Below are positions 1 to 15,900 of a stretch of 34,772 nt of DNA, one piece after another. Source of the DNA: Bacteroidales bacterium (GTDB taxonomy: Bacteria > Bacteroidota > Bacteroidia > Bacteroidales > JBKEBB01). Under the pieces are notes generated by a model, which was not told the DNA's origin, did no database searches, and worked only from the letters and a program-made list of their open reading frames with translations. Made by a program: the position numbers and the translations under genes. Numbering within the stretch: position 1 is the first letter of the stretch; each line of letters starts with the position of its first letter. The stretch lies in NCBI GenBank assembly GCA_047972845.1, contig JBKEBB010000092.1, positions 1-34,772 of the forward strand, written 5' to 3'.

Positions 1-153
1 AATTCAACAGGCGATATTTTGGCGAAAAACAGTTTGACAGATTATTAATCGCCGCTGTCAGATATCCGCCTGACTTCAAATCAAGAATTTACAATAGGAA
101 GAATTGCGGATAATCATTTAATTTAATTCGAATATTGATTCAATGGATTGTAG

Positions 154-161
154 TACCTTTG
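154..161 (+). promoter_or_regulatory. Bacteroidetes sigma -7 element (TACCTTTG) for the glycosylase gene
   Basis: Exact TAnnTTTG match upstream of ATGs at 171 and 210; suggests the ORF-track start at 135 is too early. Confidence 0.55.
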
Positions 162-209
162 CTGCAAACGATGGCGCATTCAAATGTATATTCACAAGCA
201 AATACAAGC

Positions 210-710
210 ATGAATGATAATCCCGACCTCAATTTAAAGAGATCATTTGATCCGATCATCCCTCTGAACAGCAAAATATTAATTCTCGGAACCCTTCCCG
301 GCGATGAGTCTCTCAGACAGTCGCAGTACTACGCCCATCCACGAAATAGATTCTGGCAAGTGATTGCAGCCGTCACCCGAAGCCCTTTTCCTATCAACTA
401 TGAGGAATGTATCGCAATGCTGCATCGAAATGAAATCGCACTTTGGGATGTTGCCCATCGGGCACTGCGGAAAGGAAGCCTTGACAGCGAGATCAAATTA
501 GAAGGACCCAATGATATTGCCTCACTCATCGAGGCACATGGGAATTCACTCCATCGGATTGTCTTTAATGGAAAAGGGGCGGAAAAGCTCTACTCTCGCT
601 ATTTCCCACGCTATCCGCGGATCGACTATTTGTCGATGCCAAGCACAAGTCCCGCCAACGCGGCATTCTCCCTCGAACGGCTATGTGAGCAATGGAGAAC
701 CATTCTCTGA
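210..710 (+). CDS. Uracil-DNA glycosylase superfamily protein, DNA-deoxyinosine glycosylase / Mug-like
   Basis: Motifs ILILGTLPG, YYAHPRNRFW, LWDV, FNG and MPSTSPANA are typical of this UDG family; start placed at ATG 210 (alternatives 171, 135). Confidence 0.85.
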   Translation: MNDNPDLNLKRSFDPIIPLNSKILILGTLPGDESLRQSQYYAHPRNRFWQVIAAVTRSPFPINYEECIAMLHRNEIALWDVAHRALRKGSLDSEIKLEGPNDIASLIEAHGNSLHRIVFNGKGAEKLYSRYFPRYPRIDYLSMPSTSPANAAFSLERLCEQWRTIL

Positions 711-861: not shown

Positions 862-949
862 TTGCGGTGTACACCGGAGCGTTTCGCGGTGTACACCGCG
901 ATCTGTTATCCTGTACACGGGAATGAACTCCCCTGTACACCGCGACACA
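862..949. repeat. Array of four TGTACAC cores with exact 22-bp period (array 1)
   Basis: TGTACAC starts at 868, 890, 912 and 934; unit 2 is a perfect 18-bp palindrome TCGCGGTGTACACCGCGA (884-901). Confidence 0.85.
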
Positions 950-1069: not shown

Positions 1070-1105
1070 AAAAAAGGCTGCTCAACCACGGGTCGAACAG
1101 CCTTT
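1070..1105 (-). terminator. Intrinsic terminator for the minus-strand beta-propeller gene
   Basis: Minus strand AAAGGCTGTTCGACC-CGT-GGTTGAGCAGCC-TTTTTT, a stem with G-U pairs and U-tract about 20 bp past the stop at 1125. Confidence 0.75.
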
Positions 1106-1124
1106 ATATTATATACTATCTCTA

Positions 1125-2390
1125 TTATTTTAAACTAAATGCCATTAACGCCGATCCGTGACGCACATAAAGCACTCCCTTGTGTACCGTAGGATGTGCC
1201 CAATGGGGACCATCGCCTTTAGTAACACGGAAACTGCTTATTAAATCAAATTTCTCAGGAGTAGGGTTCATCAAAGCCAATTCTCCTCGACGCTCTTCGT
1301 ATGCGATTATCTTATCTCCTACCAAAATCACATTCCCTTTGATATGACCGGGCCATTGGGTATTGTAGAGGGTTTTTCCCGTTTTCCAATCAACAGCTAC
1401 CCAGTTTCCGTTGTTGTTTCCAATCCAACTGGCACCATAGAGTGTTCCCTTATGCAGCACGACATGTCCGATATGGGTGTCGAGGTCTTCGTTTTTCCAA
1501 AGAAGTTTCACCGCCGAGGCATCGTTGTTGAGTTCTACCAAACAAGCTCCGAGATCATATCCTTGAGACATGAATATCTTTCCATTGTGATAAATCGGGG
1601 TATTACACGGATTGCGTCTGTCGCTCGCGGGATCGATCAACCAATCGGTAAAAGTCCATGCCAGTTTTCCGGTCTCGAGATCCACTCCTACCATATGAAC
1701 AGCGGTACATGTAACAATCTGCTTCTTTCCGTTGTGGTTAATCAGCAATGGATTTACAAATGCTCCCTTCTCTCCTTCGATCGGAGGAGTTGTCCAAACC
1801 GTTTTTCCTGTAGCGGCATCAAGTGCGACCATATAGGCTTTTTTTCCGGTTGGAGTATAGATCACCTTTCCATCGGCAACAATGGGAGATTCGGAAGTTC
1901 CCCATGTGCCTTGCACCATTTCATACTCTTTTCCGGCATCTCTAAACCATACAATTTTCCCATCAGTGGTATTGATACACACCACTTCACCCATTCCGGT
2001 AATCACATAGGCTTTATCTCCTACGATGGTGGGAGTGGTACGAGCGAATTCAAACGAGGCTTTCCAATTGTTTCCATACTCAACCTGATACAATCGTTTT
2101 CCATCCATCGTGAAAGCGGAGAATACCTCTTTATCTCCTGCCTCATTGAGGCCTGTAATATAGATATGGTTGTTGGCAACAACAGGACTTGAATATCCTT
2201 TTCCCGCGTTGTCAGCCGACCAGAGCTCGGTCAATCCCGCCTCAGGCCATTTTTGCAACATTCCATCTCCGGGGTACACGCCATCACGGTTAGCGCCTCG
2301 CCATCCTTGTTGATTCGGTTGGGCATTCATCGAAACCGGTGCGGCCATCAACAAGGCCGACACAAAAAGAACAAGACTTTTTTTCTTCAT
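1125..2390 (-). CDS. Secreted PQQ-binding-like beta-propeller repeat protein (BamB-like fold), paralog A
   Basis: 421 aa; Sec signal MKKKSLVLFVSALLMAAPVSMNA; WRGANRDG, GYSSPVV, repeated ALD/TGK..W blades, C-terminal GPHWAHP. Confidence 0.85.
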   Translation of the reverse strand: MKKKSLVLFVSALLMAAPVSMNAQPNQQGWRGANRDGVYPGDGMLQKWPEAGLTELWSADNAGKGYSSPVVANNHIYITGLNEAGDKEVFSAFTMDGKRLYQVEYGNNWKASFEFARTTPTIVGDKAYVITGMGEVVCINTTDGKIVWFRDAGKEYEMVQGTWGTSESPIVADGKVIYTPTGKKAYMVALDAATGKTVWTTPPIEGEKGAFVNPLLINHNGKKQIVTCTAVHMVGVDLETGKLAWTFTDWLIDPASDRRNPCNTPIYHNGKIFMSQGYDLGACLVELNNDASAVKLLWKNEDLDTHIGHVVLHKGTLYGASWIGNNNGNWVAVDWKTGKTLYNTQWPGHIKGNVILVGDKIIAYEERRGELALMNPTPEKFDLISSFRVTKGDGPHWAHPTVHKGVLYVRHGSALMAFSLK

Positions 2391-2499: not shown

Positions 2500-3771
2500 T
2501 CATTTCTTAATATTGAAAGCCATCAACGCCTCACCATGCCGTATATACATGATCCCCTTATGTACAATCGGGTGTGCCCAATGGGGACCATCGCCTTTGG
2601 TGATCCGAAATTGACTAACTATATCGAATTTCTCCCGGCTGGGACGAACCAATGCGACGGTTCCTCTCCTCTCTTCATAGGCGATAAGGTGGTTGCCAGC
2701 TGAAATAATGCAGCCCTTACCTCGTCCTTCCCATGGGGTTTCATACAACGTTTTTCCTGTATTCCAATCCACTGCCATCCAGTTTCCGCCTGTGTTGGTG
2801 GTCCAGTTTGATCCGTACAACGTTTCGTTGACTAAAACATATCCACCGTGATGCACATCGAACTCTTTATTCTTCCAGATCTGTTTGGCAGAAGAGGAGG
2901 ACTCATCGAGGGAATACTTCCATCCTCCACCATCATAGCCGTCAGAAAAAAACAAACTTCCATTCTCATAAATAGGCGAATTACATAATGCGATATCACG
3001 GGTGACATCCTCGGTGAGCCATTCGTTGGTTCTCCACATTATTATTCCTGTTTTTATATCAATGCCCAACAAATCAAAAAATACAACGGCTACAATCTGT
3101 ACCTTTCCCTTATGTTCAATCAAAGCAGGCGACGTAAAGGAGCATTTCGCATCATCAATCGGAGGTGTAGTCCAAATCTCCTTCCCTGTCAGCGCATCAA
3201 GCGCTACCATTGTTGCTTTTTCACCTACCGGAGTAACGATTACTTTATTGTCATACACAATAGGAGCCTCGGAAGTCCCAAAAGGGGCTTGACGAGTTTG
3301 ATACACCTTGCCCACACGTACACTCCATTCGATGGTTCCGGTCGCAACATTGATACATGCCACATCGCAATTTCCACTCACAACATACGCCCTTCCGTTA
3401 GCGATGGTAGGACAACAGCGGGCATGTGTATAGTTCTTACTCCAAGGTTCACCATATTCCACAGCCCATCTCTTTTTTCCGTCGAGTGTGTATGCGGATA
3501 GCTTCTCTTTATCTCCGACTTCGTTAAGTCCCGTTACAAAAACCATATTTTCGGCAACTGTAGGACTGGAATATCCCTTACCCGCGTCGTCGATACTCCA
3601 CAATTCAACCGGCCCTTCGGCAGGCCACTCATCGAGTAATCCCTTCTCGTTAAAGATACCGTTTCTGAATGCTCCTCGAAATCCGTTTTGGGGTGGAAGC
3701 GCTTGAATAGAGACAAAGGATGATATAAGACTGAGCATAATACATACGCTCAGATAACGAAGTGTTTTCAT
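2500..3771 (-). CDS. Secreted PQQ-binding-like beta-propeller repeat protein, paralog B
   Basis: Collinear with paralog A (GKGYSSP, GTSE.PI, AYEERRG, TKGDGPHWAHP); ATG at 3771 gives a signal peptide MKTLRYLSVCIMLSLISSFVSIQA, preferred over TTG at 3819. Confidence 0.85.
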   Translation of the reverse strand: MKTLRYLSVCIMLSLISSFVSIQALPPQNGFRGAFRNGIFNEKGLLDEWPAEGPVELWSIDDAGKGYSSPTVAENMVFVTGLNEVGDKEKLSAYTLDGKKRWAVEYGEPWSKNYTHARCCPTIANGRAYVVSGNCDVACINVATGTIEWSVRVGKVYQTRQAPFGTSEAPIVYDNKVIVTPVGEKATMVALDALTGKEIWTTPPIDDAKCSFTSPALIEHKGKVQIVAVVFFDLLGIDIKTGIIMWRTNEWLTEDVTRDIALCNSPIYENGSLFFSDGYDGGGWKYSLDESSSSAKQIWKNKEFDVHHGGYVLVNETLYGSNWTTNTGGNWMAVDWNTGKTLYETPWEGRGKGCIISAGNHLIAYEERRGTVALVRPSREKFDIVSQFRITKGDGPHWAHPIVHKGIMYIRHGEALMAFNIKK

Positions 3772-3882
3772 TAATGGAGTATTAATAGTTGCTTGTATAG
3801 AACTGGTTTCAGTATGCAAATAAACAAAATAATCTGATAATTCCTATCAATATGATCGAATTTAATATCAACTGTCGTCAGA

Positions 3883-14476: not shown

Positions 14477-15340
14477 ATGGATCAGTTTCGGATCGATCAA
14501 ACCGCTCTTGTCCTTGAAGGGGGCGGTATGCGTGGGGCATTTACAGCCGGTGTTCTCGATCTTTTTATGGATAAGGGTCTCCTTTTCCCCTACTCGATAG
14601 GAGTATCCGGAGGCACAAACAACGGCCTCTCCTATTTTTCGCGACAGCGAGGACGTTCATACTACGCTCACGTCACCTTGATGAAGGAACAACCCTATAT
14701 CGGAATCCGTCCATGGCTGAAGAAAAAGATGGTCATCGACCTGGATCTGCTCTATGAAGAGTTGGTTCACACCCTCTATCCCTACGACTTTGCCGCGGCA
14801 TTTTCCAACCCCGGTCGCTTTGAGGTGGTTGCCACACATTGCATCACCGGAGAGGCTCATTAAGTGGAAGAGCGTGCCGACCCGAAACGGTTGCTCACAA
14901 TCGGCCGCGCCTCTTGCAGCCTACCCATCCTCTCGCCCGAAGTATGGGTGGATGGACAACCTATGACCGATGGAGGACTTGCCGACTCCATTCCCCTAAA
15001 AAGGGCATTCGGGCAAGGATTCTCAAAGGCCGTAGTTGTATTGACTCAAAACGAAGGATTTCGTAAACCACCTTCTAAATTCAAAGTCCCCTCATTCATC
15101 CTCCCCCGCTATCCGAAAGTTCGAGAAATGCTCTACAATCGCCCCGCTCGCTACAATGAGCAATTGGAGTGGGTGGAACAGATGGAGCGCGAAGGAGCGG
15201 TGGATATCATTCGCCCCCTCAAACCTCTTGAGGTGGGTCGATTGACCACCGACTATCGACGACTACAACGGCTCTACGATGAGGGGTACGAAAACGCCCT
15301 GACATGGTATAACAGATACCATCCGGTAAAAGGGGAGTAA
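14477..15340 (+). pseudogene. Patatin-like phospholipase (DUF6363-type C-terminus) interrupted by one in-frame TAA at 14861-14863
   Basis: ORFs 14477..14863 and 14864..15340 are in the same frame; GGGMRG and GVSGG nucleophile elbow precede the stop, the DGG motif follows it; may be a true nonsense allele or a sequencing error. Confidence 0.8.
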
Positions 15341-15505
15341 GGTACGTGAAGCAAGCCGCAGGTCTTTCCGATGATTACCCACACAATGATTCTTCCATGG
15401 GAAAATTCGATCATCAGTGCGCAACCTGACACAAAAGAGAAACACACCTGTAACTTGAATCGATCCAAGCGGTTCGGTTGTCCCGATCGAGCCTTCGGAT
15501 TGCAG

Positions 15506-15593
15506 TCCCGCTGTACACCATAGCCAATTCCGCTGTACACGGCACGTAAGCAGGGTGTACACCGCGATGCACTACCCTGTACACCGAAGTAAG
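15506..15593. repeat. Array of four TGTACAC cores with exact 22-bp period (array 2)
   Basis: TGTACAC starts at 15512, 15534, 15556 and 15578; shares GGTGTACACCGCGAT and CCCTGTACACCG with array 1. Confidence 0.85.
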
Positions 15594-15657: not shown

Positions 15658-15900
15658 TCATTCGGTTTCGTTCTCTCCGCGGACAGACTTCTGCATGTAT
15701 TCCCACTGATTCGCGCGCACGCGATACATTATTTCAAACAGCATCTCCTGTACCGCGATGATGTAATCATACACCGAGCCCGAACGAAGATATTTCACTT
15801 GAATACAGTGCGGAGCGAAGACACCATATTGTATATGAAAGCCACAGAGAGTATCGCTAAACCAACATCTCCATAGTATGATGGAATGGTTGTCTTTCAT
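15658..15900 (-). CDS. Small hypothetical protein (80 aa), uncertain
   Basis: ATG-start ORF filling an otherwise empty gap, divergent from GH92; no recognisable motif. Confidence 0.25.
   Translation of the reverse strand: MKDNHSIILWRCWFSDTLCGFHIQYGVFAPHCIQVKYLRSGSVYDYIIAVQEMLFEIMYRVRANQWEYMQKSVRGENETE

Follow-up and report, generated by a model that had tools for sequence, protein, structure and literature searches.

A dispersed family of TGTACA arrays with a 22-bp period and an iteron-like layout in a Bacteroidales genome

Introduction

The closest described counterparts of the arrays examined here are the origins of Rep_3-type theta replicons (RepB, pCI305/pWV02-type), in which three to four iterons, each joining an 8-10-bp word to a free spacer, recur at a 22-bp period and present their sites for docking on the same face of the helix. 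True iterons are asymmetric direct repeats, and a Rep_3 origin occupies one locus per replicon. In Rep_3 biology, inverted-repeat operators bind Rep dimers, and extra iterons supplied in trans lower plasmid copy number. Plasmid centromeres, namely F sopC and R1/pSK41 parC, also consist of protein-binding units repeated in tandem and in helical phase; they lie at one locus per replicon beside the par genes, and the sopC units carry a dyad.

Chromosomal repeats offer further comparisons. BrickBuilt of P. gingivalis, a member of the same order, is described (PMC4596501) as 19 intergenic copies of a 23-nt unit repeated without spacers in 1 to 22.8 copies, with (i) a nonrepetitive leader and tail and (ii) IS5-like terminal inverted repeats. 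REP and BIME elements are high-copy extragenic palindromes set in regular mosaics, and Bacteroidetes-specific REP forms with "atypical" structures have been reported (PMC6006769). CRISPR arrays, finally, alternate a conserved palindromic repeat with variable sequence at a fixed period.

Here, we analyzed a stretch of 34,772 nucleotides from a Bacteroidales bacterium (the window) that holds two arrays of G/C-flanked TGTACA palindromes, together with the genome from which it comes. The arrays share with Rep_3 replicons the 22-bp period, the number of units, the short word, the free spacer, and the predicted same-face docking; three or more tandem copies, as expected of such an origin (units of 17-22 bp repeated about every 22 bp), are present, and TGTACACC serves as an iteron word next to Rep_3 genes. 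Unlike a Rep_3 origin, however, they occupy about 60 dispersed loci rather than one, lack a rep gene nearby or elsewhere in the assembly, show no enrichment of DnaA-box words, and are built of symmetric units without polarity, all of which speaks against an origin. The tandem helical phasing and the dyad recall sopC and parC, whereas the 60 loci and the lack of a recurrent neighbor do not. With BrickBuilt, the arrays have in common the order, the intergenic and dispersed placement, the head-to-tail units of about two helical turns, and the variable unit number; they differ from it in their 22-bp period, palindromic core, two to five units, unique flanks of the window arrays, and lack of enrichment for its terminal repeat words. 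The 23-nt units, the leader and tail, and the IS5-type ends of BrickBuilt rule out that the arrays are copies of it. The high-copy extragenic palindromes in regular mosaics resemble REP and BIME elements, from which they depart in showing no stem covariation and in keeping all units in one register rather than in alternating orientation. The resemblance to CRISPR ends at the overall design. CRISPR repeats measure 24-48 bp, their spacers are about as long, and they occupy one locus or a few, whereas a whole unit here spans 22 bp, of which the palindrome takes up no more than 18 bp and about four bases are free; in addition, the arrays have two to five units, lie at 60 loci, and are common to orthologous sites. 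The preliminary description of this DNA likewise called the units too short for CRISPR.

Results

Two arrays in the window

Array 1 lies in a gap between convergent genes, the next gene being encoded on the minus strand (Table 1). A fresh reading of the plus strand placed TGTACAC at 868, 890, 912, and 934, exactly where the preliminary description had put it, and recovered both the 12-bp palindrome of unit 1, CGGTGTACACCG, at 865-876 and the perfect 18-bp palindrome of unit 2. Two earlier statements needed adjustment: (i) the distance from the glycosylase stop, given as about 160 bp, amounts to about 152 bp from the end of the open reading frame (ORF) at 710 to the start of the array, and (ii) the unit is not the one-strand 7-mer TGTACAC, its conserved core being the palindrome TGTACA with G/C-rich flanks. 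The window contains 15 matches to TGTACAC on both strands, eight of them in array 2, as compared with a mean of 2.58 in shuffled sequences (sd 1.51; largest value 6; n = 100), a count that none of the 100 shuffles reached. When array 1 and its surroundings were compared with the whole genome by BLAST, only positions 861-948 recurred elsewhere, and the flanks of the array were unique.

The window genes at 1125-2390 and 2500-3819 are adjacent, are both on the minus strand, and both encode PQQ/BamB-like beta-propellers. A further paralogue, with 39% identity, adjoins another TGTACA array, on contig C364.

Table 1. Coordinates of the arrays, their parts, and neighboring features (positions in the window unless a contig is named)
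Feature	Position	Strand	Basis or remark
Uracil-DNA glycosylase superfamily gene, upstream of array 1	135-710	+	PF03167, E 2.4e-11
Array 1: four units of 22 bp (TGTACA core with G/C flanks, variable linker)	862-949		Whole-genome BLAST
Core 1, TGTACA, within the 12-bp palindrome 865-876	868-873		
Unit 2, centered on core 2 (890-895), a perfect palindrome of 18 bp	884-901		Also a weak hairpin-like site
Core 3; flanks CC left and CG right, noncomplementary	912-917		
Core 4; flanks CC left and CC right, noncomplementary	934-939		
Terminator-like hairpin of the beta-propeller gene, outside array 1	1073-1105	-	15 pairs, then a T-run
PQQ/BamB-like beta-propeller gene, convergent, downstream of array 1	1125-2390	-	PF13360, E 8.5e-27
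Patatin-like/DUF6363 fragment gene, upstream of array 2	14864-15340	+	
Array 2: four more TGTACA units in a convergent gap, cores at 15512, 15534, 15556, and 15578	15504-15591		
80-aa ORF downstream of array 2, without a family match	15658-15900	-	
Family B examples	C261:2263-2350, C227:1606-1690, C312:654-675		Contigs outside the window

A genome-wide family with a 22-bp period

The genome is a 2.99-Mb draft in 392 contigs (43.2% G+C), assembled from a metagenome and 94% complete. Array 1 is one copy of a dispersed repeat family in it: whereas the preliminary description covered two arrays, the genome holds about 60 intergenic arrays, with two to five cores exactly 22 bp apart. The enrichment of 22-bp spacing that had been predicted is pronounced, as same-strand TGTACAC sites no more than 100 bp apart were spaced, across the whole genome, only by 22 bp (51 on the plus and 48 on the minus strand), 44 bp (11 and 6), 23 bp (one case), and 66 bp (one case). 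TGTACA itself occurs at 736 sites, with 106 successive pairs 22 bp apart, and its arrays occupy 60 loci; allowing one mismatch in the outward cores, seven of these have two units, 32 have three, 20 have four, and one has five. An unbiased lag scan (threshold 0.66) returned 53 regions of self-identity at lag 22, as compared with 0-9 at each other lag from 8 to 39, and a looser scan returned 125 at lag 22, as compared with 5, 19, 0, and 15 at lags 20, 21, 23, and 24, respectively. The three-core pattern matched 49 times in this genome, and its reversal had no match in any genome searched.

Words of the TGTACA arrays, and of a second family described below (family B), are some of the commonest 10-mers in the genome. 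TGTACA is not avoided as a site in the genome (ratio 1.05). Two other palindromes are strongly avoided genome-wide, namely GTATAC (52 seen and 495 expected) and GTCGAC (67 seen and 407 expected), which suggests restriction-modification systems of these specificities. Our literature searches returned no description of the TGTACA family, and the dispersed family is apparently undescribed.

Conserved cores, drifting linkers, and independent half-sites

From a matrix of 175 units, the unit emerged as an 18-bp palindrome, degenerate and centered on TGTACA, with about four free bases after it. Among the internal slots, which lie between two perfect cores and were therefore not selected for their own sequence, 53 of 60 carried a perfect core and the remaining seven had a single mismatch. 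The ends of the arrays are sharp, with at least three mismatches in 101 of the 118 slots directly outside. Linkers, by comparison, vary freely: adjacent units have an identity of 0.25-0.42 at the outer linker positions, and between arrays of this genome the mean linker identity is 46%, the closest pair agreeing at 26/32 positions. That the core is conserved while the linkers drift indicates that something reads these sites.

The two bases on each side of the core are GG or CC, and each side is chosen independently. Consistent with this, base-pair covariation was absent from the units, the Watson-Crick counts at the eight mirrored positions being in every case those that column composition predicts, and the self-complementarity of the linkers lay below that of shuffled sequences (188 as compared with 218 +/- 9). 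Neither did the arrays have a preferred strand: TGTACAC was uniform on one strand in 22 of 42 arrays, as compared with 20.6 expected from shuffled half-sites (P = 0.35), and seven arrays were co-oriented and four anti-oriented relative to flanking transcription, which is no bias. The unit consensus contained neither a GTAG nor a CGTC tag.

These properties bear on whether the arrays work as single strands, that is, as hairpins in RNA or ssDNA serving as a REP-like mRNA stabilizer, a terminator, or the substrate of a REP-associated transposase. Both strands of the array do form stable folds (-49.9 and -55.8 kcal/mol; z -4.2 and -4.9), and the phage iterons discussed below have a gene for a 137-aa Y1 transposase beside them; the strong folds, however, arise because neighboring palindromic units pair, as any tandem palindrome would. 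Compensatory variation was found neither within units nor across linkers, noncomplementary units are common, and 16 arrays lie between divergent genes. In the window, Rfam gave no match at the gathering threshold; at an E-value threshold over the array, it gave only chance-level hits to microRNA models, the best scoring 19 bits as compared with a gathering score of 101. This genome has no Y1_Tnp gene, and the Y1 gene of P. goldsteinii is flanked by an unrelated 41-nt inverted repeat. Taken together, the lack of covariation, polarity, and transcriptional bias argues against a hairpin or RNA element and for a symmetric reader of duplex DNA; we regard the single-strand reading as very improbable and already weakly refuted.

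The P. goldsteinii gene is a single Y1 gene of the REP-associated type (L183:1278-2185), bracketed by 98% complementary copies of the 41-nt inverted repeat; this hairpin-type REP family is distinct from the TGTACA arrays of the same genome. REP elements as the identity of the arrays were rejected on the missing stem covariation, the missing Y1_Tnp in this genome, and the different repeat of the P. goldsteinii gene.

Genomic context and a second brick family

Array placement was assessed on a crude, ORF-based gene map (110-aa minimum) on which 45 arrays could be placed, 12 lay at contig edges, and three fell inside ORFs. The placeable arrays comprised 25 in tandem, 16 in divergent, and four in convergent gaps, for which 148, 67, and 30 kb of intergenic DNA, respectively, are available, so that placement is roughly proportional to the available DNA; an 80-aa ORF map gave a similar picture. 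The median distance of the TGTACA arrays from stop codons is 166 bp. No small gene recurs beside the 60 arrays. Four genes representing three of the four recurring groups of neighbors proved to be Gfo/Idh/MocA, GH2, and GH38 paralogues, and the fourth group is the PQQ-like propeller; apart from such members of large metabolic paralogue families, there were no recurrent neighbors. A regulon was likewise considered and rejected, as the neighbors of eight P. goldsteinii arrays are functionally unrelated and no small gene recurs in the present genome.

The looser lag scan also revealed family B, whose 22-bp unit consists of an A-run, S, G, six free bases, C, S, and a T-run, plus a 4-base linker. 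Its 83 arrays in the genome have mostly three to four units and often abut TGTACA arrays, sharing their 22-bp register. Family B is enriched in convergent gaps (16/55) and lies at a median of 84 bp after stop codons. As in the TGTACA units, its half-sites vary without compensation, the pairable double change CG/CG being seen 22 times, as compared with 22.1 expected under independence.

Strain variation and the origin of unit number

Contigs from public sequencing runs span the whole 300-1500 stretch at about 94-95% likeness, and further contigs from these runs have matches confined to 861-900, the repeat family as it occurs in those relatives. In one related strain (X1), a single unit of array 1 is missing, a difference of exactly 22 bases at 864, and unit number therefore changes by whole units; with this loss and the two to five units per array, the number is not fixed, which speaks against a docking platform. 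A run labeled RNA-Seq, which is probably DNA (X17), has contigs over 832-1000 and none over 710-832 or about 1000-1120. X1 differs at no fewer than two positions within array 1, at least three in the 151 bp to its left, and at least 16 in the approximately 97 bp to its right (950-1046).

The exact one-unit difference indicates that slippage or unequal exchange acts on the array. As a full explanation, however, an ordinary slippage minisatellite, a chance pattern, or a coding repeat has next to no credibility and is refuted by the following: (i) the linkers of one array bear no relation to each other, a pattern that simple slippage would not generate, as had been argued before on array 1 and is now seen alongside 60 loci with a common core; (ii) neither shuffled sequences nor reversed-pattern controls gave such arrays, which speaks against chance; and (iii) a coding repeat, the outcome that the preliminary description had named as fatal to its own reading, is contradicted by a period of 22, which is not a multiple of 3, and by the six short ORFs crossing arrays 1 and 2, none of which (0/6) had a Pfam match at E 0.1.

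Distribution in other lineages

No other genome in the comparison belongs to the taxonomic family of the genome under study. The relatives to which the preliminary description had pointed gave a divided result: the three-core pattern was absent from all 30 genomes of the same order (0/30), and it was present in Colivivens, in Parabacteroides, and in one Paraprevotella. Triple matches numbered 174 in Ca. Colivivens caballi, 16 in Parabacteroides goldsteinii, 11 in P. gordonii, 16 in P. segnis, and three in the Paraprevotella genome, with no match to the reversed pattern in these five genomes. Within a sample of 400 other Bacteroidales genomes, seven had one to four triple matches each; among the matches listed, from five of those seven genomes, all were simple tandem repeats of near-identical units. 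Four-core arrays are typical of the array-bearing lineages, P. goldsteinii having eight such arrays, and the bases that adjoin the core vary between lineages. In Colivivens and Parabacteroides, the arrays are flanked on both sides by inverted, lineage-specific 22-bp units of a second type. The 47 Colivivens copies analyzed have stereotyped linkers, with 74% identity.

Five pairs of Parabacteroides arrays are orthologous, and they differed at 0/120 positions in the cores, 26/240 in the linkers, and 66/600 in the flanks, a comparison biased toward conserved cores, as perfect cores were the criterion by which both arrays of each pair had been picked out. In one such pair (L103 and L134), the middle linkers match by eye at 13/16 positions as reverse complements and at 8/16 directly, which hints at an inversion or a template switch between neighboring palindromic cores.

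This distribution is in part what would be expected of a selfish, nonautonomous mosaic repeat of the BrickBuilt, MITE, or BIME kind, in which the bricks would be recognition sites of the copying enzyme and have no host function. Such a repeat would account for (i) dispersed, intergenic copies placed in near proportion to intergenic DNA, (ii) a patchy occurrence with strongly different copy numbers, (iii) the 47 stereotyped Colivivens copies with their inverted arms of a second 22-bp unit, and (iv) the co-occurrence of a second brick family in this genome; moreover, BrickBuilt (PMC4596501) provides a precedent in the same order. Points (ii) and (iii) also count against a docking function. On the other hand, the selfish reading sits poorly with cores that are perfect although the genome has no recent, near-identical copies (the best linkers match at 26/32), such copies being evident in Colivivens (74% on average); with the unique flanks of the window arrays, in which terminal inverted repeats were not seen; with one BrickBuilt-type terminal repeat word near the arrays, as compared with 2.1 expected; with the absence of a Y1 transposase from this genome; and with the stability implied by Parabacteroides arrays at orthologous sites in different species. 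We consider a selfish mosaic repeat possible though rather unlikely, and a version in which the mobilizing enzyme keeps the cores intact, held with the same reserve, ranks second after a docking platform.

The same word and period beside Rep_3 genes

A scan of viral contigs for four cores at 22 bp returned eight stretches, three of which belong to related contigs of 136-177 kb; a Prevotella genome carries the repeat of these contigs as well, at either end of a contig of 196 kb. The region retrieved from one viral contig contains 20 + 7 units of 22 bp with TGTACACC, situated in a 1.3-kb gap beside a Rep_3 gene (PF01051, E 7.9e-16; PF21205, E 1.2e-13) and followed by primase-like genes, and the gene layout of a second retrieved contig is the same. 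The family B unit had no match in viral contigs. In the first of these regions (L203:4608-8169; layout repeated in L204), the Rep_3 gene, the gene for a 137-aa IS200-like Y1 transposase 26 bp away, the 27 iterons, and AT-rich 13-mer repeats lie together. The Y1 gene leaves no room for the usual IS200 end on the Rep side and may be part of the origin module.

At least five TGTACACC units at 22 bp were found in eight stretches of species genomes, and a Rep_3 gene lies within about 1 kb of such arrays in a Streptococcus oralis contig and in an Oscillospiraceae contig. In metagenome contigs, eight of 77 loci had a Rep_3-like ORF within 2 kb and added three iteron types, and most of the remaining loci were long satellites, unrelated tandem repeats, or short contigs, without a Rep within 2 kb, so that the word and the period alone do not signify an iteron. 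The Rep proteins of the six unrelated replicons have pairwise identities of 21-36%. The phage Rep resembles most closely RepB from lactococcal theta plasmids, and in one such plasmid, pA12-3, 3.7 copies of a 22-bp unit precede repB. Judged by the Rep_3-adjacent arrays and pA12-3, the chromosomal arrays have the word, the period, and the number of units that mark a Rep_3 iteron block. The link is founded on an 8-10-bp word plus the period in searches anchored on that word, and of the 14/18 positions at which the consensus and the phage iteron match by eye, six were fixed by the search.

The chromosomal arrays themselves are orphans, with no initiator gene nearby or elsewhere in the assembly. 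Rep_3 (PF01051) was found in 0/5 array-bearing genomes, namely this genome, Ca. Colivivens, P. goldsteinii, P. segnis, and the Paraprevotella; of these, the present genome is metagenome-assembled and 94% complete, such that a plasmid may be unbinned, and P. goldsteinii is an isolate genome. Relatives of the phage Rep or of its 234-aa neighbor were likewise absent from the five genomes. DnaA-box-like words near the arrays numbered 11, as compared with 12.5 expected, and the array flanks are 62% A+T, slightly above the genome value of 56.8%. BLAST with the array gave one weak match among plasmids (E 0.2) and none among phages.

Orphan arrays with iteron-like words could also be decoys that titrate or "handcuff" the Rep of incoming Rep_3 plasmids and phage-plasmids, a defense by incompatibility. 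They share core word, period, and unit number with Rep_3 iterons, including those of the Prevotella-tied phage-like replicons; their cores are kept although a resident Rep gene was not found; and their dyad-symmetric units resemble the inverted-repeat operators that bind Rep dimers. However, Rep binding to these units is purely inferential, their flank sequences are unlike those of every true iteron found, and family B lacks an iteron counterpart in viral contigs. We therefore hold a decoy function to be improbable. If it were true, the arrays would constitute a DNA-only defense under which invading Rep_3 plasmids and phage-plasmids could not establish, and the lineage-specific flanks of TGTACA would track the specificities of the locally circulating Reps.

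Discussion

The reading that we favor, with about even confidence, is that these are orphan, dyad-symmetric, iteron- or operator-like arrays on which a putative dimeric DNA-binding protein would dock and which have spread in the manner of a mosaic "brick" repeat. It derives from four observations: the cores and their spacing are kept, the linkers drift, the half-sites vary without compensation, and the word and period are those of true iterons beside Rep_3 genes. The preliminary description had already proposed an iteron-like docking array for a phased dimeric protein, which stands as the best-supported mechanism, given the conserved cores and spacing, the independent half-sites, and the Rep_3-adjacent iterons elsewhere; it had missed the dispersed family, and its iteron-like side is weakened by the lack of Rep_3 in five genomes.

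In the docking reading, a period of 22 bp, or about two helical turns, would place all sites of an array on one side of the duplex. Each G/C-flanked TGTACA site would most likely be occupied by a sequence-specific DNA-binding protein in dimeric form, and owing to the phasing, three to four dimers would assemble cooperatively into a single nucleoprotein complex, which would resemble the iteron and operator block of a Rep_3-type replication origin. Protein binding, the dimeric state, and the role of the complex are what we infer from the pattern of the sites. The arrays have evidently been multiplied and dispersed within a mosaic of 22-bp bricks.

The family thus combines the grammar of plasmid iterons with a REP- or MITE-like dispersal. 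Possible readers of its sites include a host DNA-binding protein that would organize or regulate the chromosome, the enzyme that would spread the repeat, and the initiators of incoming plasmids. Bacteroidales are among the best-studied bacteria of the gut and the environment, yet we did not find this repeat family described in the literature. Three cultured Parabacteroides species carry the arrays, and direct tests at the bench are therefore possible.
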